Virus record (IMG/VR): IMGVR_UViG_3300047321_000299
DNA length: 36,507 nt
Source of the DNA: a virus
Strand: one strand, 5' to 3'
Part shown: positions 1,298-16,228 of the stretch, piece by piece
Layout: each line of letters starts with the position of its first letter
Position numbering within the stretch: the stretch's first letter is position 1
Made by a program: the position numbers and the translations under genes
The notes under the pieces: generated by a model
What the model was told of the DNA's origin: nothing
What the model saw: only the letters and a program-made list of their open reading frames with translations
Database searches by the model: none

Positions 1298-3514
1298 TCA
1301 TGCTGCGCCGAATGCGGTCTGTACGGAGCCGCGGCCGTCCACGCGGACCATGCGGCGGATGAGCCGCTTCATGTCGCTGTCCGCGCCGGTGACGTCCAGG
1401 ACGATGCGGCCGCCGCCCACCGCGCCGCCCGATGCCCTGCCGGCCTGCGCTGCTACTGCGGCGGCCGTGGCCGCGCCCGGGGTGGGCACGGACACCAGGT
1501 TTCGCATGGTGCGATCGATGACGCCTGCGTTGTCCTCGGCGCCTTGGGCGATACCGGCCGGGATCCACTGGCCGACCTGATCGGCGAGTACGCGCGACGG
1601 CGAGTGGATGCCGAGGGCGTCCGCGATAGGCCCGGGGATCATTGACTTGGCGAATGACATCAGCTGCGAGCGCAGCCATGAGCCCATCGACTGAACGCCG
1701 TTGAGCAGGCCGCGGATAAGGTCGCGGCCCTTGTCGGCCAGGAGCGTGTTGAGATTCCCGATCGCGCTCATGATGCGGCCGGGCAGACCACGCACCCACC
1801 CGATGAAGTCGGTCACCTTCGTCGCGGCCATGGTCCGAAAGGCGGTGAAGCCCTTACGGGCTGCGCCGGCCAGGGATACGCCGAGGCCTGCGAGGGCCAT
1901 CACTGCGCGGTTGGGAAGGCCGACCAGCCACAGCACCAGGCCGACGAACTTTTCGATGGCCCAGTCTGCTGCCTGCCCGAACCAACCGGCGAGCATCGCT
2001 GGCAGTCCGGCGAACCAATTGATGGCGATGGCGATTCCGGCGATGGCCGTGGAAATGACGGCCTGTATCGCGCCCCATGCGGTCTGCACGATGTTCCGGA
2101 AAGTCTCGCTGTGCTGGTAGGCGAGGATGATCACGGCGATAAGGCCGATGATCGCGCCGATGATGAGCACGATGGGGTTGGCAGCCATAACGGCGTTGAA
2201 GATCGCCTGTGCGACGGTCCACACGCCCATGGCCGTGGCCACGCCGATGACGACACCGGCGAGCGGGCCGATCACGGCAATGTTCTTCGTGACGTACTTG
2301 GCGAACACTTCGAGGATGGGCACGACGGTGTTGCCGAGCAACTCGACGAACCCTTGCGTAAACCCGCGCTTGAGCTGCTCGATGCGCGCCCCGGCCGTCT
2401 CGTGCAGGCTCTTGCCGAGCCGGTCCGTTGCCCCTGCGGCCTTGTCCATGCCGGACGATGCGGCCGCGGTTGCCGGGTCCAGCGCGAACAGGGCCTCGCC
2501 CATGACGGTGCCCGGGTCGCCGAACAGGGCAGTGGCGGCGTTGAGCTTGACTGTCTCGTCTTTGGTGCCGCGCAGTGCGTCGAGGGTCTGCTGTAGGGCC
2601 TCCTCGGCGCTGCTGCCGCCCTTGCCGATCTTCTGTGCCATCGTGTCGGCGTTCAGCCCGATGGAGGCGAACGCCTCCTGCACGCCCGTGCTGCTCGACA
2701 GGGCGAGCTCGCCGAACTGCCCGATGGCGTCGGCGACCTGGTCGCTGTCGCGCGCACCCGCTTTCACGGCCTGGTCGATCAGGCCGAGGGCCGTCTGTCC
2801 GTCGAGGCCGACGCGCCGGAACTGCGTCGAGTACTCGTTGAACGTCTCCAACAAGTCGTCCGCTTTGTTGGCGCTGGTCGTGAAGCCTGCCGCGAGGATG
2901 TCGAACGCTTCATTGGCGCTCGATGCGAGGCCGGTGCGCAGCATCTGCGACACGGCGTTCGTCACACCGCCGAGCTCCTGGTCGAACGTGCCCGCGAGGT
3001 CGGCGACCTTGGTCGAGATGGACTGAATCTGTGCGTTGGTGGCGCCCGGCGGGAGCAGGCCGGAACCCATGGTTGCTTGGATGGTGTCCGCGGCGGTCTG
3101 GAAGTCCTCGGTGATCGCGTTCGCGTACAAGTCGCCTGCGATCTCTCCCAGCCGCTTCGCTTCGGCCGGCGTCTTGCCGAGCTGCGCGCCGAGCTTCGCC
3201 GTGATCTGCTGCTGTTCGACGGCTTGGGCCACGCCTTCCATGAGCGCCGCGCCGATGCCTGCGCCGATGGTCGCGGCGGCGAATCCGCGCAGCTTGCTCC
3301 CCATGCCCTCGACGGCCTGGTCGGCGCCGTCCTCGGCGCCCTCGGCGAGGCCGTCGCCGAGGGCCTGGCCGGAGTCGCGGCCGATGTCGCCCGCGTCGGA
3401 CACGGCGCGGTCTCCGGTGGTTCTGAGGCGCCCCTCGAACCGGCGCAGTCCGGCGGCGCCCTGGCTGTCGTCGACACTGATCGTTGCGGCGAGCTCGCCC
3501 ACTTGAAGCGCCAT
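1298..3514 (-). CDS. Tape measure protein (738 aa)
   Basis: This is the longest ORF directly downstream of the G/GT chaperones. It has an Ala/Gly-rich helical N-half and a cluster of hydrophobic helices (VIGPLAGVVIGVATAMGVWTV, IIGAIIGLIAVIILAY, LVLWLVGLP). An AAGGAGGTG Shine-Dalgarno (SD) sequence lies about 8 nt upstream of the ATG. Confidence 0.85.
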   Translation of the reverse strand: MALQVGELAATISVDDSQGAAGLRRFEGRLRTTGDRAVSDAGDIGRDSGQALGDGLAEGAEDGADQAVEGMGSKLRGFAAATIGAGIGAALMEGVAQAVEQQQITAKLGAQLGKTPAEAKRLGEIAGDLYANAITEDFQTAADTIQATMGSGLLPPGATNAQIQSISTKVADLAGTFDQELGGVTNAVSQMLRTGLASSANEAFDILAAGFTTSANKADDLLETFNEYSTQFRRVGLDGQTALGLIDQAVKAGARDSDQVADAIGQFGELALSSSTGVQEAFASIGLNADTMAQKIGKGGSSAEEALQQTLDALRGTKDETVKLNAATALFGDPGTVMGEALFALDPATAAASSGMDKAAGATDRLGKSLHETAGARIEQLKRGFTQGFVELLGNTVVPILEVFAKYVTKNIAVIGPLAGVVIGVATAMGVWTVAQAIFNAVMAANPIVLIIGAIIGLIAVIILAYQHSETFRNIVQTAWGAIQAVISTAIAGIAIAINWFAGLPAMLAGWFGQAADWAIEKFVGLVLWLVGLPNRAVMALAGLGVSLAGAARKGFTAFRTMAATKVTDFIGWVRGLPGRIMSAIGNLNTLLADKGRDLIRGLLNGVQSMGSWLRSQLMSFAKSMIPGPIADALGIHSPSRVLADQVGQWIPAGIAQGAEDNAGVIDRTMRNLVSVPTPGAATAAAVAAQAGRASGGAVGGGRIVLDVTGADSDMKRLIRRMVRVDGRGSVQTAFGAA

Positions 3515-3556
3515 GCGCGGCCACCTCCTTGTCTGTGGCCGCGCGTGCGCGCGGGA

Positions 3557-4251
3557 TCAGCCGCCGCGCGTGGGGCGCGGTGGCTCGGGTGGGGGGTTGT
3601 TGAGTCGAGACAGGCGGGAGTCGGCCGAGAGCAGGCCATAGATGCGCACCCGTAGCCATCGCCACGAACGGGTGTCGAGCAGGCCGGGGGCGCCGACGTC
3701 CACGCCGTAGATCTCGTGCAAGTCGGCCTCGACGATGGGCCACTCGTCGAGGATCTGCGGCCAACTCACGTGCGGCGCGCGCCCTTGCCCTTTCCGCGGG
3801 GCCGTGCCGGGCGGGTACTCGTACCACTCGTAGAGCCCCGAGACTGGGTCGAGCTCGCCGCACCCGACGGGTTGCGGCGCTGCTGCCTGTTCGAGGCCAG
3901 ACGATTTGGGTCGCCACCGGAGTTCCAGAACCGTTCGGCCTGTTCCTTGTTCTGGACGATCCACACCATGGCGGTGATGGCGGCGTGTTTCATGGCCGGC
4001 CACGTCACGCCGTCGTCGACCATCTCGTCGTACGCGGTGCCGAGGACGTCCGCGTACAGGTCGCGTTCGGCTGCGTCGGCGAGGACGGTCTCGTCTACGC
4101 GGCCGCCGTCCGCGGCGATGGCGGCGGCCTGCATGATGGCCTGCGTGCGCAGACCGATCGCGGCCGACGGGGCGGGGATGCGGTAGGTCTTCCCGCCGAG
4201 CGGGAGGCGCAGCTCGTCGTCGAGCAGTTCGCCCAGTGCTTCAAATGCCAT
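3557..4251 (-). CDS. Tail assembly chaperone GT fusion (about 231 aa) made by -1 programmed frameshift
   Basis: Frame 0 from ATG 4251 reaches the heptamer C CCA AAT (3910-3904). The -1 frame is open from there to the stop at 3557 and is the frame of track ORF 3557..4003. The position between the tail tube gene and the tape measure is canonical. Confidence 0.75.
3766..4251 (-). CDS. Tail assembly chaperone G (161 aa, frame-0 product)
   Basis: The internal ATG at 4251 of track ORF 3766..4659 is preceded by TAAGGAGAG, which overlaps the major-tail stop. The upstream part of the track ORF overlaps the major tail gene and is Arg/Pro-rich junk. Confidence 0.8.
   Translation of the reverse strand: MAFEALGELLDDELRLPLGGKTYRIPAPSAAIGLRTQAIMQAAAIAADGGRVDETVLADAAERDLYADVLGTAYDEMVDDGVTWPAMKHAAITAMVWIVQNKEQAERFWNSGGDPNRLASNRQQRRNPSGAASSTQSRGSTSGTSTRPARPRGKGKGARRT
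3904..3910 (-). promoter_or_regulatory. -1 ribosomal frameshift slippery heptamer CCCAAAT (X XXY YYZ)
   Basis: The plus strand reads atttggg. In the G frame it reads GA|C CCA AAT|. The -1 frame reads CCC AAA TCG and continues open for 116 codons. Confidence 0.7.
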
Positions 4252-4265
4252 GGGTGGAACTCTCC

Positions 4266-4745
4266 TTACGTGGCGGGGTTGGTGATCTCGGTCGGCGCGC
4301 CGTGGCCGGTGAGCGTGACCTTGATGGACTCCAGCTCTTCGGAGTCGCCACCCTCGGGCTCCCACGTCACAAGCGCGAGCCCCTCCCAGTTGTCGCCGTC
4401 GCGGCCGTCGCGGTCGTACCACCGCACGTGCACGTACGACAGGGCGCCGAACGAACGGCCCGCGAGGCGGAGCTTTTCCTGAGCGGCGTTGAACGCCTTG
4501 GTGGTGGGGTGCGCCCGGCGCAGGAACGTTGCCTCGGCCGACCATGTGAGCTTGGTGCGGGTGACCTGTCCCCATCCGTCCGACCCGTAGTCGGTGGAGT
4601 CCTGGTCGGTCGGCTCGATTTTCGGGGCGAACTCGGACATGCCCGGGACGACGGCCCATGAAGGGGTGCCGGTCGCCGACAGGTCGATTTCCAGCCGGTA
4701 GCGGCGGGCGAGCAGGGTTGCGGACTCGGCGGCGATGTCAGCCAC
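4266..4745 (-). CDS. Major tail (tube) protein (159 aa)
   Basis: Assigned from its position between the connector genes and G/GT. A GAGAGGAG SD lies upstream and the size is typical. No sequence-specific motif was recognised. Confidence 0.65.
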   Translation of the reverse strand: MADIAAESATLLARRYRLEIDLSATGTPSWAVVPGMSEFAPKIEPTDQDSTDYGSDGWGQVTRTKLTWSAEATFLRRAHPTTKAFNAAQEKLRLAGRSFGALSYVHVRWYDRDGRDGDNWEGLALVTWEPEGGDSEELESIKVTLTGHGAPTEITNPAT

Positions 4746-4759
4746 GGTGTCGGCTCCTC

Positions 4760-5191
4760 TCAGTCAAGGTTGGGATGCGCCCGGTTGGCGCGGATGGTGT
4801 AGTTGCTGGTCCGCTCGAACCGGCCGGTGGTGTCGGCTCCGAGCGAGGCGGCCGAGGCGCGGTAGATGAGCGCGACGGGGTGGCCGTTGAGGTCGAGCGG
4901 CCCGGCGGCGTGCAGTACCGCGAACACCTGGTCGTCGAGGGCGGCGACGTCGCGCGGGTCCTGGCCGGCGCGGGTGCGGACCTGCACGGAAACGGTGGTG
5001 TCGGTGACGGCGGCAGACTCGGTTCCCGCGTAGGCGGTCAGGCAGATGACGCGGTCGGGGGCGTCCGGCATCACCGTGTCAGTGATGGCGGTCTCTCCTG
5101 CGGCGTAGATGCCATCGGGCCGGTACGTCCCGGCGCCGTTCGCGGCGAGCAGCTGGGCGAGGCCGTCGACGACGTCGACGAGAAAGCTCAC
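4760..5191 (-). CDS. Tail terminator / tail completion protein, putative (143 aa)
   Basis: GTG 5191 forms a GTGA overlap with the upstream stop. The internal start was chosen because the track ORF N-terminus is Arg/Pro junk. Function is assigned by position only. Confidence 0.55.
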   Translation of the reverse strand: MSFLVDVVDGLAQLLAANGAGTYRPDGIYAAGETAITDTVMPDAPDRVICLTAYAGTESAAVTDTTVSVQVRTRAGQDPRDVAALDDQVFAVLHAAGPLDLNGHPVALIYRASAASLGADTTGRFERTSNYTIRANRAHPNLD

Positions 5192-5538
5192 CGCAGTGCC
5201 CTCCGTACCTGTGCGGCGATGAGCGCGGTTGCCGTGTCGGCCTCCTCGATGAGAGGCCGTTCGAGGTACTTGGCGGTGCGCCCGGCGTCGTGCTGGTAGT
5301 TCAACTCTTCGTGCTGGCGCACCGCGTACGGGGTGTCGTACGACACGGCGGCGGTGAGGTTCGCCTCGTCGACGGTGGCGACGCCTGAGCGTTCGAGGGT
5401 GGCCTCCTCGATCGGCACCCGTCCGCGCGATACGGCGAGGACGTGCTCGGCGGCGAGGCGTAGGCCGAGGGCGGAGCCCTGGCGCATGGCGGCGAGGGCT
5501 ATGTCGCCGTCCCATCGGATGGGACCGGACTGCGTCAC
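5188..5538 (-). CDS. HK97 gp10-like head-tail joining protein, putative (116 aa)
   Basis: GTG 5538 forms a GTGA overlap. The segment ...AAVSYDTPYAVRQHEEL... resembles the conserved core of the gp10 family. Confidence 0.55.
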   Translation of the reverse strand: MTQSGPIRWDGDIALAAMRQGSALGLRLAAEHVLAVSRGRVPIEEATLERSGVATVDEANLTAAVSYDTPYAVRQHEELNYQHDAGRTAKYLERPLIEEADTATALIAAQVRRALR

Positions 5539-5855
5539 TCGCACATCACCTCCGTACAGGCGGGCACCGGGAGGCCCGGCGCGGTGTGCTGCGCGTTGCT
5601 GATCACGACGGTGGTGCGCCCGTCCGGCAGGGTGACGCGTGAGCCGGTCGGGCAGTCGAGGCCGGGGGCGGCGATGATCTGCGCGGTGGAAACGACCTCG
5701 GCGCCCGTCGCGTCGCGTGTCCGCTTGATGGTGCTGGCGACCATGGCGGGCACGTCCGCGACGGGCGGCCCGTAGCGGGGCCCGTACGCCCCTACGCCGA
5801 GGTAGGGCTCGATGGTGATCCGGTGGCGCAGCAGCCATGCGGGTACGGCGGTCAC
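5535..5855 (-). CDS. Head closure / head-tail adaptor protein, putative (106 aa)
   Basis: GTG 5855 forms a GTGA overlap with the upstream stop. Function is assigned from position in the connector block. Confidence 0.5.
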   Translation of the reverse strand: MTAVPAWLLRHRITIEPYLGVGAYGPRYGPPVADVPAMVASTIKRTRDATGAEVVSTAQIIAAPGLDCPTGSRVTLPDGRTTVVISNAQHTAPGLPVPACTEVMCE

Positions 5856-6235
5856 CAGATCACCCCCGGCAGGAGTCCGGCGCGCCGTAGGGCTCGGTCG
5901 GCGCGCGGGGCGATGTCGACGTCCCCCGCCCCGCGCGGTGCGTCCTTGCGGCCGGACAGGGCTACCGGGCCGATGCTGACGGAGTCCCATCGGCCGGCCG
6001 CGCCGGTGCCGTCGTCGCCGGTCGCCCGCTGGTACTCGACCTGCGCGCACGTCGCCTCACTGAGTGCGGCGACGATGGCGGGATCGGTGGGCATGCCCTC
6101 GACGTCGGTGCAGTAGACGGCCGTGCGCAAGGCGTCGTCGACGTCCTGCGAGGCGCGTGTCAGCAGCCGTTCGGCATCGGCCGGGGCGGGCTGGCCGGTG
6201 TAGGCGGCGAGCTCCTCGGGCGTCGCGTACACCAT
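5852..6235 (-). CDS. gp6-like head-tail connector protein (127 aa)
   Basis: The N-terminus MVYATPEELAAYTG... and the size are typical of the phage gp6-like connector family. It is the first gene of the connector block. Confidence 0.6.
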   Translation of the reverse strand: MVYATPEELAAYTGQPAPADAERLLTRASQDVDDALRTAVYCTDVEGMPTDPAIVAALSEATCAQVEYQRATGDDGTGAAGRWDSVSIGPVALSGRKDAPRGAGDVDIAPRADRALRRAGLLPGVIW

Positions 6236-6248
6236 GGCCGCGCCCCCC

Positions 6249-6590
6249 TTACCTGGTCTCTTCGATCAGCCCGGCGGTGACCGAGGCGGCCGCGGACCAA
6301 TCGCAGTACACGTATCCGTCGGTCTGGAGTGCCTCCGGGCCCTCGGGGATGTACGCGGTGGCGGACGCGGCGACGGACACGACACGGTCGGGCACGGCCA
6401 GACCAGCGACGCGGCTGTTGCTACGAATGGTGACCGTGACGGCGCTCGCCGCACCGTTGCGGACGATCAGCCGGCGGCGGCCGGTGTAGCGCCACTGGTT
6501 GCCGTTGGTGCCGTCCGCGGCGGTCAGCGTGATGGCGGCGAGCGGTGCGCCTGCGGACACCGACTGTGCGACGAACTCAGTTCGAGGCAT
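6249..6590 (-). CDS. Hypothetical head-associated protein (113 aa)
   Basis: The ATG has an AGGAGG SD about 10 nt upstream, and third codon positions are strongly G/C. The sequence looks beta-rich. It lies between the capsid and connector genes. Confidence 0.7.
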   Translation of the reverse strand: MPRTEFVAQSVSAGAPLAAITLTAADGTNGNQWRYTGRRRLIVRNGAASAVTVTIRSNSRVAGLAVPDRVVSVAASATAYIPEGPEALQTDGYVYCDWSAAASVTAGLIEETR

Positions 6591-6780
6591 CGGCGGTCAC
6601 CTCCTGGTGCTCGTTCTTCTGGCGGGTACGGGAACGCCCCGCGGGCTTGGCCTGCGGGGCGTCGTGGTCCGGCTCGGGTTCCGGCTCGGCCGGGGTGTCC
6701 GACGGGGTGTCGGACGGGTCCGGCGCGGTGTCCGACGGAGTGTCGGACGCCTCGGCCTGGTGGTGGCGGCGCAGCAGCAC
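6577..6780 (-). CDS. Small acidic low-complexity protein with SDTP repeats (67 aa)
   Basis: GTG 6780 lies 7 nt after GGAAGGAGGG. The ORF is in frame with the 3' end of track ORF 6577..7155 and has high GC3. It contains SDTPSDTAPDPSDTPSDTP, encoded by a 23-bp direct repeat. Confidence 0.5.
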   Translation of the reverse strand: MLLRRHHQAEASDTPSDTAPDPSDTPSDTPAEPEPEPDHDAPQAKPAGRSRTRQKNEHQEVTADASN

Positions 6781-6800
6781 GGCGGCGCCCTCCTTCCTGA

Positions 6801-7658
6801 TCAGGTGGTGGCGAGGGTGCCGACGCACACACCGCGGTCGTTGAGGCGCTTGACGGCGTAGTGCATGGTCGTGGTGACGACGGTCGAGCGGGCGAGGATG
6901 TCGCGGTCCGACTCGACCAGCGGGCGCCGCTTGTAGAGCAGGCCAAGCGCGTTGTTCTTGAGCAGCAGAAACTTGCCCGCGGTGATCCGGTTCGTGATGA
7001 ACACGGGCACGCCACCGATCCGGCCGATAGAGCCGGTCACGGCCGCGGACGCACCGTTGCCGAGCTTCGCCGCGTCGACGAACTGCGCGTCGGCCATGGC
7101 CTCGGCGAGCTGAACGCTGTTGAGGTACAGGCCGGCGAAGTCGGACGGCTCCCACTCGTCGCCGAACTGGCCGATGGCGGGCACCATCGAGTCAGCCCAC
7201 GTGAACTTGGTCTTGCCCGTGGCGGTGGTGAACGCGAACGGAGTGCCGCCACCCTGCGCGGTCTCGTTGGCCTGCGCCTGAGCGATCAGCGCCGCGTCGA
7301 CCTTGCGGGCGGCGAGGATGCCGAACTGGCGGCGGGCCTCGGCCTCGGGGTCGCCGAGGGAGGTAAGGCGGGCCTTGTCCGTGATCTCGACCGCCTTACC
7401 GGCCTCCTTGATCGTGGCCGTGGCGTCCGCCGTCGACATGGCGGTCGGGGTCATCGCCGTGGTCTCGGTGAGGTCGTCGAGGTCGCCGATCGCCCCCCAC
7501 TTCGGGAAGTTGACGGTGTCGCCGGGGGCGCCCTCAAGGGTGTTGTCCTCGATGACGGCGGCCGATCCGGCGACGCGGACCTGTCCGACGAAAGACGCCT
7601 GCGCCATGTCGCCCCACACCTCGGGGTTGATCACAGCGGCTGCGGTGGTCTGAGCCAT
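6801..7658 (-). CDS. Major capsid protein (285 aa, no delta domain)
   Basis: It sits immediately downstream of the scaffold gene. A GGAGAGAG SD lies upstream. The size and composition fit a scaffold-dependent HK97-fold capsid protein. Confidence 0.8.
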   Translation of the reverse strand: MAQTTAAAVINPEVWGDMAQASFVGQVRVAGSAAVIEDNTLEGAPGDTVNFPKWGAIGDLDDLTETTAMTPTAMSTADATATIKEAGKAVEITDKARLTSLGDPEAEARRQFGILAARKVDAALIAQAQANETAQGGGTPFAFTTATGKTKFTWADSMVPAIGQFGDEWEPSDFAGLYLNSVQLAEAMADAQFVDAAKLGNGASAAVTGSIGRIGGVPVFITNRITAGKFLLLKNNALGLLYKRRPLVESDRDILARSTVVTTTMHYAVKRLNDRGVCVGTLATT

Positions 7659-7727
7659 GGTCGTTGCTCACTCTCTCCGGCGACGGTGCGCCGGGCTTTG
7701 GGTCGCCCGGCACGGGGCCGGGCAGTT

Positions 7728-8435
7728 TCAGGAACCGGCGAGGCGCCGGTACGTGTCGGGGTCGGACTCGTACAGCGCGGTGCGCGCGGTGTAGTCCATG
7801 GCGGCGAACTGGGCGGGGGTGACCTCGCCGTTTCCGCCGCTGGTGAAGTCGGCGCCGCCGCGGGAGGGCCCGGCGGCGCGGGCGGCGAGGTACGGCTGTG
7901 CGGTGATCGCTGCCTGAATCGCCGCGGTGACGGCCGCGGGGTCGGTCGGGTCGATGGCGGCGAGTGCTGCCATGGCCGATGTGCTGTCGAGCAGCGCGGC
8001 CGGATCGGCGCCGGCCGCGGCGGCGGTGGTGTAGACGGCGGACTGAACGGCGGCCCGCTGGGTCGCGGCCTGTCCGTCGGTGACGAGTCGCTGTGCCCAC
8101 TGCGGGAGACGCTCGACGGCGCCCTCGGCGATCGGCTCGGGCGCGGTCGGCGTGGGCTGCGGCGGCTGCCCGGCAGTCTGCGCCCGGGTCCGGTACTGGG
8201 CTGCCTCGGCGCGGGTGTTCGCGATGAGCGTCTGCGCCCATGCGGGCAGGCTGGCGACGTCCTGCGGCTCACCCTGCGGGGCGGGCTGTGCGGGCGTCTG
8301 CGGCTGTGCGGGCGCGGCCGGGTCCTGCGATGCGGGTACGGCGGCCGGGGCGCCCTGCGGGGCGGTGGCGGCCGGGGCGGCGGGTGCGGGTGCCGGGGCG
8401 GCGGGTGCCGGGGCGGTGGGGGTCGGGGTGGACAT
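7728..8435 (-). CDS. Scaffolding protein (235 aa)
   Basis: The internal ATG at 8435 has a CAGGAGGG SD. The N-terminus is Pro/Ala-rich and is followed by a helical Ala/Gln-rich body. It lies directly upstream of the capsid gene. Confidence 0.65.
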   Translation of the reverse strand: MSTPTPTAPAPAAPAPAPAAPAATAPQGAPAAVPASQDPAAPAQPQTPAQPAPQGEPQDVASLPAWAQTLIANTRAEAAQYRTRAQTAGQPPQPTPTAPEPIAEGAVERLPQWAQRLVTDGQAATQRAAVQSAVYTTAAAAGADPAALLDSTSAMAALAAIDPTDPAAVTAAIQAAITAQPYLAARAAGPSRGGADFTSGGNGEVTPAQFAAMDYTARTALYESDPDTYRRLAGS

Positions 8436-8497
8436 GGGCCCTCCTGGAGCCTTAGTCGGGGACGGGGCGCGCCTGGCGCCCCGCGTGCGGGCATACA

Positions 8498-8529
8498 GAA
8501 AAAGGGGCCCGCTCCTGGCGGACCCCTTT
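8498..8529 (-). terminator. Rho-independent terminator (minus strand)
   Basis: The minus strand reads GAAAGGGGTCCGCCAGGAGCGGGCCCCTTTTTCTGT, a GC-rich stem with one mismatch followed by a T5 run. A second 7-bp hairpin lies at 8464-8482. Confidence 0.7.
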
Positions 8530-8554
8530 CGGGTGGTGCTGTCAGTGGTGGCTG

Positions 8555-8728
8555 TTAGGCGTCGTCGTCGCCCTCGGTGGGGCGAGGCGCGGTGCCTGCG
8601 TAGCCGCGAATCCACGCGGTGCGCAGCACGCTGGTGCGCGGGTACGGGCATGCGGTCGGGGGGTTGCCTTGGCGCCCGGCCTCGGCTCCCTCGGTCACTG
8701 CCCGTGCGATGTCCTCGCGCGTTCCCAT
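8555..8728 (-). CDS. Small Rmf/CrpP-like protein (57 aa)
   Basis: ATG 8728 is preceded by GGAGATGAGG and lies 10 nt after the MuF stop. The translation is MGTREDIARAVTEGAEAGRQGNPPTACPYPRTSVLRTAWIRGYAGTAPRPTEGDDDA. The pattern G..AG..G.....CPY........W..G matches the ribosome-modulation-factor/CrpP fold signature. It is below the track length cutoff. Confidence 0.6.
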   Translation of the reverse strand: MGTREDIARAVTEGAEAGRQGNPPTACPYPRTSVLRTAWIRGYAGTAPRPTEGDDDA

Positions 8729-8737
8729 GTGCTGACC

Positions 8738-10951
8738 TCATCTCCGGTTCTGGTGGTCGGACTCATTCTTACGGGCACCGGATGCCCACCGCTGGGCTTG
8801 GCCGGTGGCCTTCTCGATGAACTCGGCCTGCGTCATGCGGCCGTGTTCGGCCCACCACTCTTTCAGCTCGTCCGACGCGTTCGCGTGGGCGATGCGTGCC
8901 GGGCCAGAGAACAGGGTTATGGGTGCTCGGCCGGCCGCTGCTGCCTTCTTGCTGAGCAGCACACCGCGTAGGTCTTCCTCGGCTTGCAGGTACTGCCGGT
9001 AGATGTACTCGTCGTACAGCTCGCGGGCCTGCCTGCGGGTCAGGAGGGGTGCCGCCTCGGCGGCCTCGGCTCCTCCTGCCTCGGCGACGGCTTCGGCGAG
9101 CTGCTCGGCGAACGCTGCGTCGTCGGCGAGGGCGCCCCACCCTTCCGGGTCGGGGGCGGGGTCCATCGCTTCGGCGAGCGCGTTGCGGTCGGCGAGCAGG
9201 TCGTCGACGGCGTTGCCGGTCGCGGCCGGGTGCGGGAGGTCGACGGCGTCGCGGCTGTCCATCTCCCCCGCAATGCGCAGGATCTCGTCGGGGTGGGCGT
9301 ACTGCATGCACCATGCGAGCTCGTCGTCGCCGACCTGGTCGAGGTCGGCCCGCAGCTCGCCGCTGGGGAAGTGCTGGGCGAGCAGGTCGCGGCGGTGTGC
9401 CTCGGCGGCGAGGGCGTCGCGGTCGGCCGGTGCGTCGCGGTAGCGGGCGGCGAGCTGGTCGTCGGACAGTCCGTGGAGATCGCGGCGCGCCCCGGGGAGT
9501 TGTCCGGCGCGGTCGCGGCGGTCCAGCTCGGACATGACGCGTAGCGCGTCGCTGTCGTCGAGGTGGCCGAACACTTTGCCGAGCTCCTGGTCGGACAGTC
9601 CGAGCAGGTCGTCGGTAAGGCGGCCGCCGGGGGCGGCGCGGTCGAGCAGGGCCTGTTGGTCGCGGCGGTCGGCCTCGGTCTCGATGCGGGCGCGGTCGCG
9701 TTCGGTGAGCTCACCGTGTCGCATGGCGGCTGTCAGCTCGTCGTCGCTCATCTCCCGTGGGGTGAGGTCGTCGCCGGATCGGATGCGGGCGGCCTGCTGT
9801 GCCTCCTCGGGGACCGGGCGGCGAGCAGGGGGGAGGTTCGAGGCACCGGGCTGCTCGCGCTTGGGGTTGCGGCGTAGGTCGGGGTGGGCGGCGAGGTGCT
9901 CGCGCTGGGCGCCCTGCCACTGCCTGACCTTGGCCTCGGCCGCGCGCTTGGCCTCGGGGGAGGTGGCGGCCGCGGCGCGGTTCTTGTGCTTTCGGATGTT
10001 GCGTTCGATGGCGCGCTGCCGTTGGCCGGCCTCGTATCCGTCGGGGTCGCTCTCGGCGTCCTCGGTGCGGGTGAGCCCCGGGGTGTACGCCGATACGGAG
10101 TGACGGCAGTTGGGGTGCTGGAATCCGGCGCGGCGGGCCTCGTCGAGCGATCCGGCGACCCTGACGGGGACCATGCGCCCGTCCTCGATGGCGTGCTCGG
10201 CCTCGACGGTGCGGGCTCCCTCGGCGCCGCTGATCGCCAGTACCTTGCCCTCCCACGGGCGGCACAACGGGCACTCGCGCGGTGCGTTGGACACCACTAC
10301 GAACTGCACTCCGGCCGTGTCCAACGTGCGCATGTGGGCCTCGGTGGCGGCGCGCCCGACGCTGGTGCGCACCGCCATTTCCGCGTACGACGTGAGCTGC
10401 CAACGGCGGCCGGCGCGGTCGCGAAAGCCGGTGATGCCCTCGTCGGCGAACCGGCGCATGGCGTCCTGCGTGGCCTGGCGGCGCGTGCCGGTGCCGAGCA
10501 GGGGCGTGGCGGTGACCTCGGCGACGATGCCGCGGTACCGGTCGTCGACGGCCCGCAGAATGCTGCGGTGGGTCGCGGTGATCCGGTCGACGGTCTCTTG
10601 TGCGAGGCGGTCGACGGCCTGCGCGTTCGGGGTGACGTCGTCGACCAGGCGGCGGGCGTCATCCGACAGTGCGCCGAGCTCGGCGACGGCGGAGCGGTGC
10701 CCCACGTTGTACGCCTCGGCGACCACGTCGAACACTTCCAGCGTGGTCGCCTTGCCGAGCTCGCCGACAACGGCCTGCGAGGCGCGGCGTACGGCCTGCA
10801 CGGCGGACAGCTTCCGCTCGACCCATCCCGGGGCGTCGAGGCCGTCGGCGAGCTGGCGGGCGATGATGCCCAACAGGCGCTGCTCGGCCTGCTCGTACAG
10901 GTCGCGGGTGCCGGTGGCGAGGTCCTCGACCATGCCCGGATGGATCGCCAC
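8738..10951 (-). CDS. MuF-like (SPP1 gp7 family) minor head protein with a 350-aa-plus C-terminal extension (737 aa)
   Basis: The core ...RRWQLTSYAEMAVRTSVGRAATEAH...VVVSNAPRECPLCRPWEGKVLAI... is the Phage_Mu_F signature. GTG 10951 lies 7 nt after TAAGGAGGG. The 83 aa further upstream in the track ORF overlap the portal gene and are Pro/Arg/Ser junk. Confidence 0.85.
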   Translation of the reverse strand: MAIHPGMVEDLATGTRDLYEQAEQRLLGIIARQLADGLDAPGWVERKLSAVQAVRRASQAVVGELGKATTLEVFDVVAEAYNVGHRSAVAELGALSDDARRLVDDVTPNAQAVDRLAQETVDRITATHRSILRAVDDRYRGIVAEVTATPLLGTGTRRQATQDAMRRFADEGITGFRDRAGRRWQLTSYAEMAVRTSVGRAATEAHMRTLDTAGVQFVVVSNAPRECPLCRPWEGKVLAISGAEGARTVEAEHAIEDGRMVPVRVAGSLDEARRAGFQHPNCRHSVSAYTPGLTRTEDAESDPDGYEAGQRQRAIERNIRKHKNRAAAATSPEAKRAAEAKVRQWQGAQREHLAAHPDLRRNPKREQPGASNLPPARRPVPEEAQQAARIRSGDDLTPREMSDDELTAAMRHGELTERDRARIETEADRRDQQALLDRAAPGGRLTDDLLGLSDQELGKVFGHLDDSDALRVMSELDRRDRAGQLPGARRDLHGLSDDQLAARYRDAPADRDALAAEAHRRDLLAQHFPSGELRADLDQVGDDELAWCMQYAHPDEILRIAGEMDSRDAVDLPHPAATGNAVDDLLADRNALAEAMDPAPDPEGWGALADDAAFAEQLAEAVAEAGGAEAAEAAPLLTRRQARELYDEYIYRQYLQAEEDLRGVLLSKKAAAAGRAPITLFSGPARIAHANASDELKEWWAEHGRMTQAEFIEKATGQAQRWASGARKNESDHQNRR

Positions 10952-10964
10952 GGCGGCACCCTCC

Positions 10965-12449
10965 TTACATGGGGAACGTGCCGACGGGGTCGGGTGCGCC
11001 TGCGCCGGTCTCGGCGAGGATCGCGGCGGCCTCGGCGGCGACGGCGGTGTCGTCCCAATCCGGGTGCAGGATCTTGACCTTGGTGCCGGTCGACACGGCG
11101 CCCGCCCGGTTGAGCAGGTCGAGGGTCGTGGCGGTGGCCTGCTCGGACTCCGCGACGCCGTCGCCGAACTCGACGCGCGGCCGCTCCGGCTTGATCGCAC
11201 GGTTGCCGAACAGGGCGGCGTCCAGTTGCAGCATGACGTGCAGCATGTCGGCGAGCGGGTGCCGCCAATAGCCGGTCTTCTTCTTCCGGGTCACCATCGA
11301 CCGCTGATCGCGGCTGTCTACCTCGGTGGCGGTGACGGCCTGGCCCTCGCCGTCGAGGCCGAGAGACTGCGCCGAATAGCCGGCCGACTGCGCGGCCTGG
11401 CGCACGATCGCCTCGACGGTGGCGCGGTGCTCCTCCACCCGGATCGCGAACTGCGACAGGGTGATTGAGTTGCCCTGCTCGGTGGGCGGGATGTTCAGCT
11501 GTTGGAAGACCTCGCGGTCGTCGTCGAAGCTGGCGCCCTCGCCGCGGCCGTTGCTGCGCAGGTAGGCGTCGGGAACGATCAGGCGGGCGCGGGCGAGGCG
11601 AATGTCGCGCATCCACGACGTCCACGTCTCGTCGAGCGCGTCGAACAGGTCGTGAACGCCACCCGCGTAGTCGCTGCGCCCGACGGGGCTGTCTCGGTGC
11701 AGCCGGTTGGGCAGCATGTTCGGCACGTAGGCGGCGGTGAGGTCGCGGATACCCGTGCTGATCGTCTGCCCGTCGCCGTCCTTGTCGAGGGACTCGATAA
11801 GGCCTGTGGTGTCGGGGTGCGCGGTGAGCGGCACAAGGCGGCCGAGGCTGTCCGGTGCGCCCTCGTACAGGCCGTGGCGGATACTGCCGCTCTCGTGCCG
11901 TTCGAGGTGCCGGTAAACGGTCTGCGTGGTGCTGCCGCTCAGCTCACGCCAGAACGTGACGGCGCGCAGCATCCCGAACCGGAACTCCGGTACGGCGCGG
12001 TCCGGCTGCATGACGGTGAGTAGGGGCCGCTCGGCGAGTTCGCGGTCCCAGGTCACGCGCAGGAACACACCGCTAAGGGCGGCGGCCTGCTCGGCTGCTC
12101 CGAGCAGCACCTGTTGCACGCGGCCCTCATCGATGAGCACCGCGAGGCGGTCCTGTGTGGCCGTGTTCTCGACGGTCAGGACGGGCATGGTGGCGAACAA
12201 CAGGTCGGCGCTGGTGCTGGCGATGTCGCCCGGCAACGGGACGTGCAGGCGGTGTTCGCGCTTGTGCGGGTGCTGGATGCGGCGGCGGCCCCATAGCGTC
12301 CGGCGCTCGTTGTGGTGCTGCGCGTGCCCGTAGACGCGGGCGAGGCGGCGGCGGTCGCCGGAGTACCACGCGTCGTCGACGCGCATCTCGGCATAGATCG
12401 GGGCCCACTGCGGGGGCGGCCACGCGGTGCCGTTCTCAGGCAGTGCCAC
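10965..12449 (-). CDS. Portal protein (494 aa)
   Basis: Size, position between terL and MuF, and overall composition all fit a portal. GTG 12449 lies 9 nt after GAGGAGG and is preferred over the TTG at 12467. Confidence 0.85.
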   Translation of the reverse strand: MALPENGTAWPPPQWAPIYAEMRVDDAWYSGDRRRLARVYGHAQHHNERRTLWGRRRIQHPHKREHRLHVPLPGDIASTSADLLFATMPVLTVENTATQDRLAVLIDEGRVQQVLLGAAEQAAALSGVFLRVTWDRELAERPLLTVMQPDRAVPEFRFGMLRAVTFWRELSGSTTQTVYRHLERHESGSIRHGLYEGAPDSLGRLVPLTAHPDTTGLIESLDKDGDGQTISTGIRDLTAAYVPNMLPNRLHRDSPVGRSDYAGGVHDLFDALDETWTSWMRDIRLARARLIVPDAYLRSNGRGEGASFDDDREVFQQLNIPPTEQGNSITLSQFAIRVEEHRATVEAIVRQAAQSAGYSAQSLGLDGEGQAVTATEVDSRDQRSMVTRKKKTGYWRHPLADMLHVMLQLDAALFGNRAIKPERPRVEFGDGVAESEQATATTLDLLNRAGAVSTGTKVKILHPDWDDTAVAAEAAAILAETGAGAPDPVGTFPM

Positions 12450-12666
12450 GGGTGCTCGCCTCCTCAAATGGGATGTGCACGGTGGTGGTCAGTACGTCGT
12501 CGCCGTGGGTGATGCGGCGGCCCTCGCGGTCGCGGACGTACAGCAGGGCGCGCACGCCGTCGTCAACGTCCAGGTGCACGCTGCGCACAAGGGACGGCGG
12601 CAGGCCGAGGGCACGGCACACGGTGCGGACCTGCTCGGTACTCAGGGCGACAGGGATGTCGGTCAT
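12436..12666 (-). CDS. Hypothetical protein (76 aa)
   Basis: ATG 12666 forms an ATGA overlap with the terL stop, and GC3 is high. Confidence 0.6.
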   Translation of the reverse strand: MTDIPVALSTEQVRTVCRALGLPPSLVRSVHLDVDDGVRALLYVRDREGRRITHGDDVLTTTVHIPFEEASTRGTA

Positions 12667-13946
12667 GCGGGGGCCTCCTTCGGCGCGGCGAGTAGGTGAC
12701 GCCACTCGTGGGCGGTGGTGTGGACGGAGTAGCGCAGCGCGTCGGCCGAGTGGTCGTTGACCTTCAACGGCTTGTCCTCGCCGCGCTCGGTCGCTTTCGG
12801 ATCCCAGCTGTAACCGGGCATCTCGGTGAGCAGGCCGGTGCAGCTCTCATGGACGAACAGGCGCCCGGCGGCGAGGACGGACGACACGGAACGGATCCCG
12901 TCCGACACGTCGTTGTTGGCGCGGGTCACGCCCTGGTGCCCGTCGGCCCATAGCTGCGTGATGAAGCTCGCGGCGCTGGGGTCGACGAACGTCCACTCCG
13001 GTGCGACGCCCGGCGGTGTGCCGGGGCCGGCCGCAGGGTGCCGCCACTCGCCGAGCCACTCGCGCAACGCTGCGGAGTACTGCGCGTCCGTCATGCTGCG
13101 GTGCGTGGCGCGGGAGTCGTGGCGCCACTCGGCGCACGCGTACAGGCGGTCGTCGGCGCCGAGGCCGAGCAGGATTGCGGAGAAAGGGTTCGTCGTGCCG
13201 TAGTCGAGGCCGACCCAATAGCGGCGCATCTCGGGGAGGTCGGTGACGACGTGGGCCCGCTCGTCCCACATGTCGTAGATGGCGCCTTCGGCGACCACCC
13301 ACGCCCCATCGATCATGCGGCGGCGCCATAGGCCGACGTACTCGGCTGACAGGTCGGCGACGTACTCGGGCGACAGGCTCGGGTTGTCGGCCAACTTGAA
13401 GTGCCAGGCACGCAAGTTCAGTTCGGCGGCGCGGTCGAGGTATCCGGCTTTGAGCCAGTGCCGCGGGCTGTCGGGGTTGGTCGTCGCGTACAGGCGGGCG
13501 CCCGGCACGGACAGTCGGGCGAGTAGCTGCGTCCAGAATCCCTCGGGCAGGAGGGTCGCCTCGTCGACGTACGCGAGCTGCGCGGTGAGGCCTCGTAGGC
13601 GGCCCTCGGCCCGGGTGTCGGCGGCGCCGATCAGGTGGACGGTGCGGCCGAGGATCGTGGCGGTGGTGGCGCCCCGGGTGTGGTGCACGTGCTGGGCGAG
13701 GGGGCCGAACAGTGCGGCGTCCTGCAACGGCTCGAACACGTTGCGCTCGATCGTCTGGAGCGACCGCCCACAGATGATGATCAGTCCGGACGGGCCGGCC
13801 GTGGCCACGGCGATGACGAACGCGAGCAGGCTTGCGATGGTCTTGCCGGATCGCACGGACCCGTGCCACAGGTTGATGCGGGCCGTGGCGCGGCCGATGC
13901 TGCGCAGCTGCTTTCGGGAGAGGGGGAGCGCGTCGAGGTCGAGCAC
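12663..13946 (-). CDS. terL: Terminase large subunit (427 aa)
   Basis: It has a Walker A motif (GSVRSGKT), a Walker B-like motif (LAYVDEA), and C-terminal nuclease-type motifs (VGLDYG, NDHSADALRY). Confidence 0.9.
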   Translation of the reverse strand: MLDLDALPLSRKQLRSIGRATARINLWHGSVRSGKTIASLLAFVIAVATAGPSGLIIICGRSLQTIERNVFEPLQDAALFGPLAQHVHHTRGATTATILGRTVHLIGAADTRAEGRLRGLTAQLAYVDEATLLPEGFWTQLLARLSVPGARLYATTNPDSPRHWLKAGYLDRAAELNLRAWHFKLADNPSLSPEYVADLSAEYVGLWRRRMIDGAWVVAEGAIYDMWDERAHVVTDLPEMRRYWVGLDYGTTNPFSAILLGLGADDRLYACAEWRHDSRATHRSMTDAQYSAALREWLGEWRHPAAGPGTPPGVAPEWTFVDPSAASFITQLWADGHQGVTRANNDVSDGIRSVSSVLAAGRLFVHESCTGLLTEMPGYSWDPKATERGEDKPLKVNDHSADALRYSVHTTAHEWRHLLAAPKEAPA

Positions 13947-13949
13947 GCG

Positions 13950-14459
13950 TCACCCCCCGTCGTCGCCCCCGTCGTCGTCGGCTGCGCGGGTCAGGGCCTC
14001 GCCAAGGGCGCCGAGCATCGAGCGCACCTGGTCGGCTCCCTCGCCACCCTCGGCGGGGGCGAGCTTGAGTGACTGCTGAATCGCGGTGCCGGTCGCGGCG
14101 ATGATCTGGCGCTGGTCTACGAACCGCGGGCGGTCGAGGTCGACGTGTTGCCACGTGCCGTCTTTGCCTGCGAACTCGCCGTACGTGGTGGGCGCCCACA
14201 GTTGGGCGCGCAGCTTCTCGGCGTCCTGGTGCAGCTGCTCGGCGAGCAGGGTGCGACGCGCGGCGAGGTCGATACGGCGGGCCTCGGTGGCGGCGATGAC
14301 CTCGGGCCCTCGCTCGAAGCTGAGGCCGAGCTCCTCGGCGAGCTTCGAAACGGTCGAGGTACTGCGCTTGATCTTCTTGGCGATGGCGTTGCGGGTCATG
14401 CCCGCGGCGTGGTGGCGGCGCACTGCTCGCCGGTCGGTGTCAGTGATGGGTCGGCCCAT
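13950..14459 (-). CDS. terS: Terminase small subunit, putative (169 aa)
   Basis: It lies immediately upstream of terL. It has an N-terminal HTH (RNAIAKKIKRSTSTVSKLAEELG) and an acidic C-terminus. A GAGGAGG SD lies upstream. Confidence 0.65.
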   Translation of the reverse strand: MGRPITDTDRRAVRRHHAAGMTRNAIAKKIKRSTSTVSKLAEELGLSFERGPEVIAATEARRIDLAARRTLLAEQLHQDAEKLRAQLWAPTTYGEFAGKDGTWQHVDLDRPRFVDQRQIIAATGTAIQQSLKLAPAEGGEGADQVRSMLGALGEALTRAADDDGGDDGG

Positions 14460-14604
14460 GGGCGCGTCACCTCCTCGCCGCGGGGTGCGGGCATGCGAAA
14501 CGCCCCGCCGGGGGGGATGACGGGGCGTTCGGGTCTCTTATGGCGCCGCCCGTTTCCGGGCACGCCGGGGCCGCTCTCCACGATAGGTCACGGAAAGGTC
14601 ACGG

Positions 14605-15129
14605 TCAAAGAGGCTTGGGGTCGGGGCACGTCACGGCGAGGCCGGCCTTTCCGCCGTAGATCTGCGCGGCGTCGTCGTCGGCGCGCCACTCGCCGCGGCA
14701 CACGATGACGGCGGCGTCTCGACTGCGGACGGTGCCGATCTCGAATGCGCGGGGCCCGTCAATGCGCTTGGCGTAGTCCCGTATGGCGGCCTCGGCCTGC
14801 TCGGGTGTGGCCTTCGGCATGAGCAGGTCGGCGCGCCCCTGCTTCCCGCCGGTGTCCTCGTTGATGACCTTGTACGCGGGGGCCTTCGGCGCGGTCTTGG
14901 TGGCGGCCTGGTCGTCGTCGCCGGAACCACCGACGGCGGCCGCCACGATCAGCGCCGCGACGATGGCACCGACGGCAAAGGGCCACCGAGGGCGTTTGCG
15001 CGGCGGGGCCGGTATCGGGTGCGGCGGTTGCTGGTACTGCGGGGCGGGCTGCGCGGGCTGCTGCTGTCCCCACGTCACGTACTGCGGCGGCTGCGGCGGC
15101 TGGTACGGCGGGCGGGGCGGCTGCGACAT
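14605..15129 (-). CDS. Membrane-anchored protein with Pro/Gln-rich N-terminus (174 aa)
   Basis: The internal ATG at 15129 has a GAGGAG SD 6 nt upstream. It has PPYQPPQPPQY repeats, one TM helix (WPFAVGAIVAALIVAAAVGG), and then a roughly 90-aa extracytoplasmic domain. Confidence 0.7.
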   Translation of the reverse strand: MSQPPRPPYQPPQPPQYVTWGQQQPAQPAPQYQQPPHPIPAPPRKRPRWPFAVGAIVAALIVAAAVGGSGDDDQAATKTAPKAPAYKVINEDTGGKQGRADLLMPKATPEQAEAAIRDYAKRIDGPRAFEIGTVRSRDAAVIVCRGEWRADDDAAQIYGGKAGLAVTCPDPKPL

Positions 15130-16220: not shown

Positions 16221-16228
16221 GGGGTGGG

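Follow-up and report, generated by a model that had tools for sequence, protein, structure and literature searches.

The short gene that follows the MuF gene in this phage encodes a 57-residue member of an already catalogued family of phage ‘Rmf/CrpP fold proteins’ (NCBIfam NF041887, PHROG 13106). Downstream of it lies an array, not noticed before, of three hairpins whose stems covary and whose pentaloops read CAGGN; together they make up the leader of the scaffold and capsid genes. The small gene, the MuF gene and the hairpins are common to more than 100 related phages and prophages. The window, by which is meant the whole stretch of 36,507 nucleotides that was analysed, is the whole genome of a temperate Streptomyces siphophage of the SV1/Raleigh/Austintatious/Alderaan type. 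Its late operon is on the minus strand, as are all the features described here unless otherwise noted.

The MuF-type minor head protein (731 amino acids, gene at 8738–10933) matches Pfam PF06152 with an E-value of 1.9e-65 and, over its full length, phrog_12049 (‘head morphogenesis’). Its gene is followed by the small gene (8555–8728, ATG start), by the three hairpins, and then by the gene for a scaffolding protein of 235 amino acids with a Pro/Ala-rich N-terminus (7728–8435). The last of these is assigned from its syntenic counterpart in Tubberson (position and annotation) and from matches to phrog_8952 and phrog_22063. The major capsid protein gene (285 amino acids, 6801–7658) matches Pfam Phage_capsid_4 and carries the same annotation in relatives.

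An earlier note on this DNA, made from the sequence alone, had proposed that the 57-residue reading frame is a real gene with a good Shine–Dalgarno sequence, and this is upheld by family matches and conserved synteny. The Shine–Dalgarno sequence is GAGG (8736–8739), 7 nt before the ATG and overlapping the TGA stop codon of the MuF gene (8738–8740). Twelve residues of the protein are invariant among the 42 homologues compared, identity across relatives is 55–86%, and the gene is under purifying selection, with a dN/dS of about 0.4. The high GC3 that had also been cited is there (0.83), but it does not discriminate in this genome because a spurious plus-strand reading frame that overlaps the gene (8619–8735) has a GC3 of 0.82. 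In related phages the homologues are annotated ‘hypothetical protein’; in Streptomyces genomes they are named ‘Rmf/CrpP fold protein’.

Profile searches bear out the Rmf/CrpP-type motif that had been read in the small protein. It scores 55.1 bits against the Pfam RMF model PF04957 (cut-off 27.9), 77.8 bits against NF041887 ‘Rmf_like_phage’ (cut-off 40) and 61.6 bits against NF041886 (cut-off 28), and it matches phrog_13106 with an E-value of 1.4e-27. It differs in nothing from the family defined by NF041887 and PHROG 13106; a literature search found no paper mentioning this family and nothing relevant on phage Rmf/CrpP proteins. An AF2 model (pLDDT 81) places helices at residues 4–20 and 34–46, and the top PDB matches of this model in Foldseek are structures of RMF (2jrm, 9iot and 6h4n; TM 0.62–0.70, rmsd 1.0–3.1 Å). 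The protein is thus predicted to fold like RMF, as two helices joined by a CPY-type linker.

The fold is shared with ribosome modulation factor (RMF) of gammaproteobacteria, which silences ribosomes, as is a core consisting of G14, A17, G18, G21, C27-P28-Y29, R36, W39 and G42. However, RMF is encoded by a stationary-phase gene, whereas the small gene belongs to the head module of a phage with an actinobacterial host. Against the RMF equivalog model NF011162 the small protein scores 35 bits, under the 40-bit cut-off. Arg3, Lys5, Arg8, Arg11 and Arg15 of RMF bind the 16S rRNA backbone (bioRxiv 10.1101/382572). In a phmmer alignment these correspond to M1, T3, D6, R9 and E13 of the small protein, such that four of the five anchoring basic residues are gone, two positions are now acidic (Asp6 and Glu13) and only that of Arg11 is retained as basic (R9). 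The net charge is –1, compared with a median of +0.5 for the family and +7 for E. coli RMF. This near-neutral charge, together with the lost contacts to the rRNA backbone, argues against RMF-like ribosome binding. The sub-threshold score, the lost residues and the charge led us to reject the protein as an RMF equivalog, and, as judged from its sequence, a classical RMF function is unlikely. In E. coli RMF, the part comprising the linker and helix 2 holds the 3′ tail of 16S rRNA (E. coli 100S structure paper), and it is with this part that the CPY linker, Arg36 and Trp39 of the small protein align. Similarity to the ICE-associated CrpP family (NF033696) is distant, although it extends over the same core (29.6 bits against a cut-off of 55; E-value 5.5e-7). 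CrpP family members are found in integrative conjugative elements, in contrast to the location of the small gene in the head module of a phage late operon, and this assignment was likewise rejected.

The small gene is closely tied to its upstream neighbour. MuF lies directly upstream in 126 of the 133 loci found via the small protein and, conversely, 70 of the 71 loci found via MuF have the small gene, the remaining one having a degenerate copy. The gap between the two genes is 3–14 nt in annotated relatives and in these loci, and phages with a different type of capsid gene, such as Raleigh, still have the pair. The suggestion that MuF and the small gene form a self-contained cassette can therefore be retained in part: they are a linked pair that travels as a unit, but the cassette comprises the two genes alone, because the hairpins do not travel with them.

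MuF polymorphic toxins with an immunity gene downstream were reportedly described by Jamet and colleagues in 2017, and the present locus resembles such systems in having a long MuF protein with a small gene at once downstream. By this analogy, MuF might end in a toxin domain for which the small protein supplies immunity or an antidote, as the earlier note had considered; the position of the small gene is the only point in favour. The Phage_min_cap2 domain of MuF is N-terminal, and the C-terminal half is acidic and all-helical; comparison with the Alderaan MuF resolves it into four repeats of ~35–40 residues each. No Pfam domain was found beyond residue 436, PHROG searches gave head morphogenesis with no match to toxins, and a PDB sequence search of the C-terminal half gave no match. 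An AF2 model of the last 220 residues (all-helical, pLDDT 84) had no fold match in the PDB by Foldseek. The C-terminus is also conserved rather than polymorphic. Between subgroups the difference is one of repeat number alone (four here versus two in Alderaan), without swapping of domains, and the last ~100 residues align full-length with the Alderaan protein inside a 276-column segment that is 59% identical. No change of the small protein in step with the MuF C-terminus was seen, and none of 236 relatives has the two proteins fused. The proposal is already close to refuted, and we consider it very improbable.

A role in the head that does not involve toxicity has more to commend it. The small protein could be a head-assembly accessory or internal virion protein whose partner is MuF or the portal; it might, for instance, chaperone the acidic MuF repeats or serve as an adaptor for them, and the RMF fold would then be merely a reused two-helix scaffold. 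Several features are consistent with this: the small gene is constantly next to MuF and probably coupled to it in translation; it occupies the stretch of the head module that separates MuF from the scaffold gene; the pair survives when scaffold and capsid genes are exchanged; and the rRNA-anchoring residues are lost, with a charge near neutral. However, gapless adjacency can be plain co-inheritance, and the constant linkage may reflect no more than a lack of intergenic space in which recombination could part the genes. The absence of fusions among the 236 relatives also counts against it, as does the occurrence of RMF-fold proteins elsewhere. Small proteins of this fold are found in many unrelated phages (143 matches in BFVD, including Serratia PS2, Delftia IME-DE1 and Caulobacter CcrSC), and divergent copies of the small gene are present in Streptomyces genomic islands that have no MuF. 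DUF6892, the upstream neighbour of these island copies, was considered as a relative of the MuF C-terminus and proved to be unrelated. Sequence searches of phage collections were less productive: tblastn with two distant homologues returned the same Streptomyces phages only, E. coli RMF as query matched no phage record, and single-protein scans for distant relatives gave one locus or none. On balance, a head accessory role is possible but doubtful.

Both hairpins that the earlier note had described downstream of the small gene are real and agree with the coordinates given there; they fall within the 119 nt (8436–8554) ahead of the scaffold gene. H1 (8499–8530) has the sequence GGGGTCCGC-CAGGA-GCGGGCCCC, with a stem of 9 GC base pairs (13 bp with its A/U extension, spanning 8500–8530), a CAGGA pentaloop at 8513–8517, a T5 run at 8499–8503 and an energy of –18.3 to –23 kcal/mol; the equivalent of the H1/spacer region in Alderaan (MT711975) is at ~11.74–11.85 kb, in a wider stretch (~11,574–11,850) that takes in gp15, the intergenic region and the start of gp16. 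H2 (8462–8484) has a 9-bp stem, GCGGGGCGC/GCGCCCCGT, and a CAGGC pentaloop at 8471–8475. A third hairpin, H3 (8437–8451), has a 5-bp stem, GGCTC/GGGCC, and a CAGGA loop (8442–8446) that displays the Shine–Dalgarno sequence of the scaffold gene, AGGAGG (8440–8445), whose ATG is at 8433–8435. H1, H2 and H3 are the only clustered hairpins with CAGGN loops in the window. It is the clustering alone that is special, since such hairpins are not enriched across the window as a whole, and nor is the motif GCCAGGMGC (four matches against 2.75 expected). No Rfam family reached its gathering score anywhere in the window, with noise only in 8380–8780, and a literature search found nothing relevant on stem-loops in SV1-type phages.

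The array is conserved as structure. Of 111 distinct related loci, 84% have a hairpin after the stop codon of the small gene, compared with 30% of control windows taken inside MuF; for a hairpin of –18 kcal/mol or lower with a T-rich tail the corresponding values are 72% and 0.9%. Because indels left RNAalifold with a poor consensus on a MAFFT alignment, a loop-anchored, gap-free alignment with explicit counting of pairs was used instead; it contains only sequences with three CAGGN loops. In this alignment compensatory changes are found at five of the 12 pairs of H1, six of the nine of H2 and three of the five of H3, so that 14 of 26 pairs show double changes. None of 500 shuffles reached the observed covariation of the three-hairpin structure, and 85% of the cells of the whole array are paired (92.5% for H1), compared with at most 54% in slid controls. 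The stem of H3 appears as GCAC/GTGC, GCCC/GGGC, GTCC/GGAC and GGCC/GGCC; in H2 the CAGGN loop and the two innermost stem pairs are invariant. Pairwise identity is 0.81–0.84 in the hairpins and 0.60 at the third codon positions of the small gene. That the stems covary while the loops are constant is the opposite of what is expected for the half-sites and spacer of an operator, and the palindromes were rejected as a DNA-level operator. In H1 and H2, half of the loops read CAGGC, a poor partner for pairing to the anti-Shine–Dalgarno sequence; the loops are therefore not uniformly Shine–Dalgarno mimics.

A GC-rich stem followed by three to five T residues is the textbook signature of an intrinsic terminator. 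In H1 the stem-loop is followed directly by T5, a T3–5 run follows the stem in 63 of 70 sequences, and its pairing is supported by the compensatory changes found in the three-loop alignment. T runs are uncommon in this DNA, which has a G+C content of 71%: the whole window contains just 16 stretches of at least four consecutive T or A. A general terminator scan of the window did not list H1, which was found by a purpose-written scan for hairpins with a T run. The description of H1 as the best canonical terminator in the genome is slightly overstated: ranked by energy among hairpins that precede four or more T, it comes second to one on the plus strand that ends at 27562 (–37.4 kcal/mol, T4). 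Internal terminators are familiar from other long structural operons, namely T-phi of T7, which follows the capsid gene, and the terminators of the lambda late operon, which are read through by Q-modified polymerase. H1 is like these in being a GC-rich hairpin with a U run, but differs in lying upstream rather than downstream of scaffold and capsid genes and in being the first of three CAGGN-pentaloop hairpins. Unless read-through is efficient, the genes needed most are transcribed less when a strong terminator precedes them, and no antiterminator was identified.

H1 had been taken to close the small gene. In prophages with inserted DNA, however, the hairpin array stays with the scaffold gene and away from the small gene; thus H1 is not specifically the terminator of the latter. 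A second, similarly built terminator is present in the late operon before the endolysin gene, in Tubberson as well as in the window phage. It thus looks as if these phages are built with terminators inside the operon where modules meet. Alternatively, the scaffold and capsid genes might be served by a promoter of their own, located within the hairpin region or immediately behind it, with H1 insulating this promoter from upstream transcription. A terminator directly before highly needed genes would make sense in this case, and a sequence GCATG(C/T)CC is conserved after the T run of H1 and recurs after the second late-operon terminator. Such a separate capsid promoter had been among the earlier suggestions, but no sigma-70-type match was found in the spacer (phage-specific promoter types being a separate matter), and there is little room, with ~20 nt between H1 and H2 and ~65 nt from H1 to the start codon. 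We regard a separate promoter as improbable.

The strand between H1 and H2 is U-rich, with TTTTGCATGCCC in most relatives, and H1 could mainly be a boundary for RNA processing and stability rather than a transcription stop. An endonuclease would cut the U-rich strand, H1 would guard the upstream 3′ end, and H2 and H3 would guard the 5′ end of a long-lived scaffold–capsid mRNA, such that abundance would be uncoupled without a promoter. Intercistronic hairpins are known to give differential mRNA stability in the pap operon of E. coli and the puf operon of Rhodobacter. The order of elements (stable hairpin, U-rich spacer, stable hairpins) and the association of the array with the scaffold leader are in keeping with such a boundary, which would also resolve the paradox of a stop signal before the most needed genes. 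Against this, H1 has the terminator signature, with a T run conserved in spite of the high G+C content, although termination and processing are not mutually exclusive. Processing as the main role of H1 seems rather unlikely to us.

The explanation that best accommodates these observations overall, at a little short of even chances, is that the small protein is a late RMF-fold tuner of translation, and that H1 is a leaky terminator separating blocks of low-copy and high-copy genes. The small protein would be made late, by translational coupling to MuF, and in MuF-like (that is, low) amounts. It would keep the helix–linker–helix core of RMF, with the CPY linker, Arg36 and Trp39, having lost the basic anchor on helix 1. 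Since the core is kept and the anchor lost, we think that its likeliest role is to bind single-stranded RNA or the ribosome platform, as a small protein that tunes late translation rather than hibernating ribosomes; this is put forward tentatively, and an accessory in MuF or portal assembly ranks next. H1 would be an intrinsic, probably leaky terminator and also a hairpin stabilizing the 3′ end, dividing the low-copy block (terminase, portal, MuF and the Rmf-fold protein) from the high-copy block (scaffold and capsid). Read-through of H1, or a cut within the U-rich spacer, would yield an mRNA starting with H2 and H3, the loop of H3 holding the scaffold Shine–Dalgarno sequence open; H2 is assigned no role in this scheme.

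It can be asked whether the two halves of this explanation are connected. The three CAGGN-pentaloop hairpins might be bound by an RNA-binding factor that recognizes their loops, perhaps the RMF-fold protein, and this binding would switch H1 to read-through and/or load ribosomes on the scaffold–capsid leader. In bacterial RMF it is the conserved linker and helix 2 that grip a single-stranded rRNA tail. The idea is a long shot. There is a likeness to boxB of the lambda nut site, which also has a short GC stem and a conserved purine-rich pentaloop beside a terminator. In the array, too, the stems covary and the loop is conserved, but this is a resemblance only: there is neither a boxA-like element nor an arginine-rich N-like protein, and the loop is CAGGN, one copy of which is a real ribosome-binding site.

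Small RMF-fold proteins are common in phages, as the structural matches in BFVD indicate. The lineage described here offers a clean handle on them: the genomic position is fixed, over 100 variants occur in nature, and SV1, Alderaan and Austintatious can be cultured; public RNA-seq data exist for Alderaan (mBio 2022; GSE213718). A binding partner, if shown, be it the ribosome platform, RNA or MuF/portal, would give a widespread family a function. The three-hairpin leader, together with the second internal terminator, points to conserved RNA structures as the means by which these temperate Streptomyces phages partition their late operon; this bears on how the stoichiometry of capsid proteins is set without separate promoters and on the sites of mosaic recombination and gene insertion. 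Binding of the CAGGN loops by the RMF-fold protein, if true, would amount to boxB/N-like or ribosome-platform-directed control of capsid gene dosage.

With a G+C content of 71% in this region, the window is a complete temperate phage genome that is reverse-complemented and circularly permuted, as can be seen when the proteins of phage Tubberson are mapped onto it. A DNA search with a 4.4-kb query returned Streptomyces phages only; Tubberson and SoJo were the best matches, at 76% identity across the full query. Alderaan, a relative, belongs to actinophage cluster BC and uses headful packaging (PMC7650747). The late operon runs on the minus strand from ~14.5 kb down to 1 and then from 36.5 kb down to ~32.3 kb (tail and lysis genes). 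The early genes, from 27.5 to 14.5 kb, lie on the same strand, and the repressor (28,275-28,628) and serine integrase (29,012-30,607) on the plus strand. The head genes, all on the minus strand, are the portal (10,965-12,467), the minor head protein MuF (8,738-10,933), a small ORF encoding 57 aa (8,555-8,728), the scaffold (7,728-8,435) and the major capsid protein (6,801-7,658). The sole sigma-70-like promoter match in the scanned positions 1-20,000, TTGACC-17-TATCGT at 14580-14608 on the minus strand, lies a short way upstream of the HTH and terminase genes with which the late operon opens; this is one match observed versus 0.5 expected by chance.

The small ORF had been described in the earlier note as an Rmf/CrpP-like gene with a good Shine-Dalgarno sequence and high GC3. 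The ORF is present, as is the Shine-Dalgarno sequence (GAGG, 7 nt before the ATG and overlapping the MuF stop codon). The GC3 value is indeed high (0.83), but it is no evidence for the gene, because a certainly spurious overlapping ORF on the plus strand scores 0.82. The real evidence lies in homology and conservation. A profile search bears out the proposed relationship, with 55.1 bits against Pfam RMF (cut-off 27.9) and 77.8 bits against NCBIfam NF041887 'Rmf_like_phage' (cut-off 40); phrog_13106 is also matched (E 1.4e-27). The 47 close homologues are all from Streptomyces, most with 'Rmf/CrpP fold protein' in their names. Twelve residues are invariant among 42 small-protein sequences, and dN/dS is ~0.4 along the entire gene, including the free C-terminal tail. 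An AF2 model (pLDDT 81) consists of two helices joined by a CPY loop, and its best PDB matches are three RMF structures (TM 0.62-0.70). The small gene is a real gene with an RMF fold, fixed beside MuF, and a further member of a curated, functionally uncharacterised family.

The fold does not bring the function with it: the protein failed the tests for RMF function and is not an RMF equivalog. It scores 35 bits against the RMF equivalog model (cut-off 40) and 29.6 bits against the CrpP family model (cut-off 55). In the E. coli 100S particle, RMF is anchored to the 16S rRNA backbone by hydrogen bonds from Arg3, Lys5, Arg8, Arg11 and Arg15; its linker and helix 2 grip the 3' tail of that rRNA, and S1 is contacted by Arg37 (bioRxiv 10.1101/382572). 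The five anchor residues align (phmmer) with M1, T3, D6, R9 and E13 of the small protein; unlike RMF, it has thus lost four of the five, two being replaced by acidic residues, and its net charge is -1 (family median +0.5) versus +7. The C27-P28-Y29 linker, R36 and W39 are invariant. The protein would be made late, in translational coupling with MuF, and it may bind single-stranded RNA or the ribosome platform through the conserved linker and helix-2 surface, a reading that is held with low confidence but is slightly ahead of its alternative. Small proteins with an RMF fold are widely carried by unrelated phages (143 BFVD matches), and are so divergent that tblastn with E. coli RMF found no phage record. 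When 1.84 billion representatives were searched with a profile, 236 relatives emerged, nearly all of 40-80 aa. A few of ~240 aa combine an unknown N-terminal domain with two tandem RMF-like domains; the longer relatives are P0084, P0093, P0105, P0116, P0049 and P0169. One longer relative is a fusion with DUF3310, and one of 1140 aa contains 18 partial RMF-like stretches.

The position of the gene is strongly conserved. In eight annotated phages the homologue, 'gp5, hypothetical protein', follows MuF at a distance of 3-10 nt and is separated from the scaffold gene by ~100 nt. Among 133 loci collected via the small protein (52 loci from Streptomyces genomes, 73 from IMG/VR and those of these eight phages), MuF is directly upstream in 126. 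To guard against ascertainment bias, IMG/VR was also searched with MuF itself; the small gene is present in 70 of the 71 loci with enough downstream DNA, and the single exception, L191, has the most divergent MuF and a degenerate copy of the small gene that has lost the cysteine. The pair persists with another type of capsid gene, for example in Raleigh. As an alternative to RNA or ribosome binding, the small protein may assist MuF or the portal while the head is assembled, a reading that is almost as likely. The seven loci that lack MuF, like three divergent members of the family that were inspected, occupy chromosomal or island contexts. Divergent RMF-fold genes occur without MuF in Streptomyces genomic islands (L210 3542-4243, L057 3490-4144, L211 and L212), two of them directly behind a DUF6892 gene, which is unrelated to the MuF C-terminus; one of these two, in L210, adjoins an integrase and a GmrSD-like gene.

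It had also been suggested that the small protein is the partner of a MuF toxin. No toxin domain was found in MuF (731 aa) by Pfam, PHROG, or PDB sequence and fold searches, and the small protein is not a toxin-immunity partner. The Pfam match is Phage_min_cap2 alone (residues 88-436 of the ORF), and phrog_12049 'head morphogenesis' matches the entire protein. The C-terminal half has no relative in a PDB sequence search, and the final 220 aa are modelled confidently (pLDDT 84) as helices throughout, without a fold match in the PDB. This half is homologous to that of Alderaan throughout, the sole difference being the copy number of an acidic repeat of ~35-40 aa ([LMV]sDdeL...DRRD; ~9150-9720, minus strand), with four copies here versus two in Alderaan. 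Variation by repeat number alone is the reverse of what a polymorphic toxin tip would show. None of the 236 relatives of the small protein is fused to MuF. A 70-aa protein, P0080, joins a MuF C-terminal motif (LTRGEMYDEYVHRQYL) straight to the second half of the RMF-fold protein, and looks like either the product of a natural deletion that fused the neighbouring genes or an artefact of assembly.

Both hairpins that the earlier note placed behind the small gene are present, at the coordinates it gave. The first, H1 (8499-8530), had been called the best canonical terminator in the genome; it ranks second among window hairpins followed by at least four T, behind a hairpin on the plus strand whose end is at 27,562, and was not reported by a built-in terminator scan. 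That hairpin (~27519-27566; a 19-bp perfect stem in a 44-nt fold, -37.4 kcal/mol, then T4) is the strongest in the window and lies where the early genes border on the immunity region. An alignment of 70 non-redundant regions from the small-gene stop codon to the scaffold start is highly ordered and contains three hairpins rather than two, each with a CAGGN pentaloop closed by C-G. H1 has a stem of 9-13 bp, and in 63 of the 70 sequences 3-5 T come after it; H2 (8462-8484) has a stem of 4-9 bp. In H3 (8437-8451; stem of 3-5 bp) the loop is almost always CAGGA and is itself the scaffold gene's Shine-Dalgarno sequence, with the start codon 8-10 nt further on. The loops of H1 and H2 are not uniformly Shine-Dalgarno mimics, since half of them read CAGGC. 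Clustered CAGGN hairpins occur nowhere else in the window, and Rfam has no family match for the region or the window. The 20-25 nt between the small-gene stop codon and H1 (8531-8554; alignment A2, columns ~20-35) are C/A-rich and conserved (CAGCACCACCCC), with a vague resemblance to an anti-Shine-Dalgarno sequence; a similar stretch, ACACCACC, immediately precedes the start codon of the endolysin gene.

Sequence changes affect the stems and spare the loops, a pattern that speaks for hairpins in RNA and against operators in DNA. Covariation was assessed on 39 distinct sequences, selected for three CAGGN motifs and phylogenetically related, in an alignment anchored on the loops and free of gaps. 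In it, 85% of cells are paired versus at most 54% with slid partners, 14 of 26 pairs have changes on both sides, and none of 500 shuffles reached the observed values. Pairwise identity is 0.81-0.84 in the hairpins versus 0.60 at third codon positions of the small gene.

The array belongs to the genes that follow it. Extra DNA in prophages always lies between the small-gene stop codon and H1 (for example in L014, L033, L035, L045, L046, L055, L105 and L117), a junction that behaves as an insertion hot spot. In many prophages the inserts are 0.3-1 kb long, unrelated and lower in G+C; in L191 the insert is a reverse-strand gene. At these loci the sequence upstream of H1 is unrelated, and H1, its T run, H2, H3 and the scaffold start stay together; the array is thus the leader of the scaffold-capsid block, or its left border. 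H1 is not a private terminator of the small gene, and as a putative terminator would act on whatever lies upstream. It may stop or pause part of transcription and stabilise the upstream 3' end, with H2 and H3 forming a stable 5' leader in which H3 would keep the Shine-Dalgarno sequence exposed. A processing model in which the transcript is cut within the U-rich spacer deserves serious consideration as an alternative, and it can coexist with this arrangement of an H1 stop and an H2-H3 leader.

A second canonical terminator is found in the late operon (minus strand, 33973-34005; hairpin 33,983-34,005, T5 at 33978-33982, then GCATGTC), in the gap that separates the final ORF of the tail region (34023-34415) from the endolysin gene. 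Tubberson shares this arrangement (L134 9240-9310), with a C-rich run, a GC hairpin, T5-6 and CATGTCTGGAGACACCACC-ATG. Given this second case in both phages, internal terminators at module borders seem to be a design element of these phages. Since they look like part of the design, the downstream genes are most likely expressed by read-through, either by leaky termination or by some antitermination mechanism; a scan of the spacer gave no sigma-70-type promoter. The new elements are the near-obligate linkage of the small gene to MuF, the specific loss of rRNA-anchor residues with the linker and helix-2 surface kept, the three-hairpin CAGGN leader that stays linked to the scaffold gene, and the second internal terminator; they are useful leads rather than a surprise.
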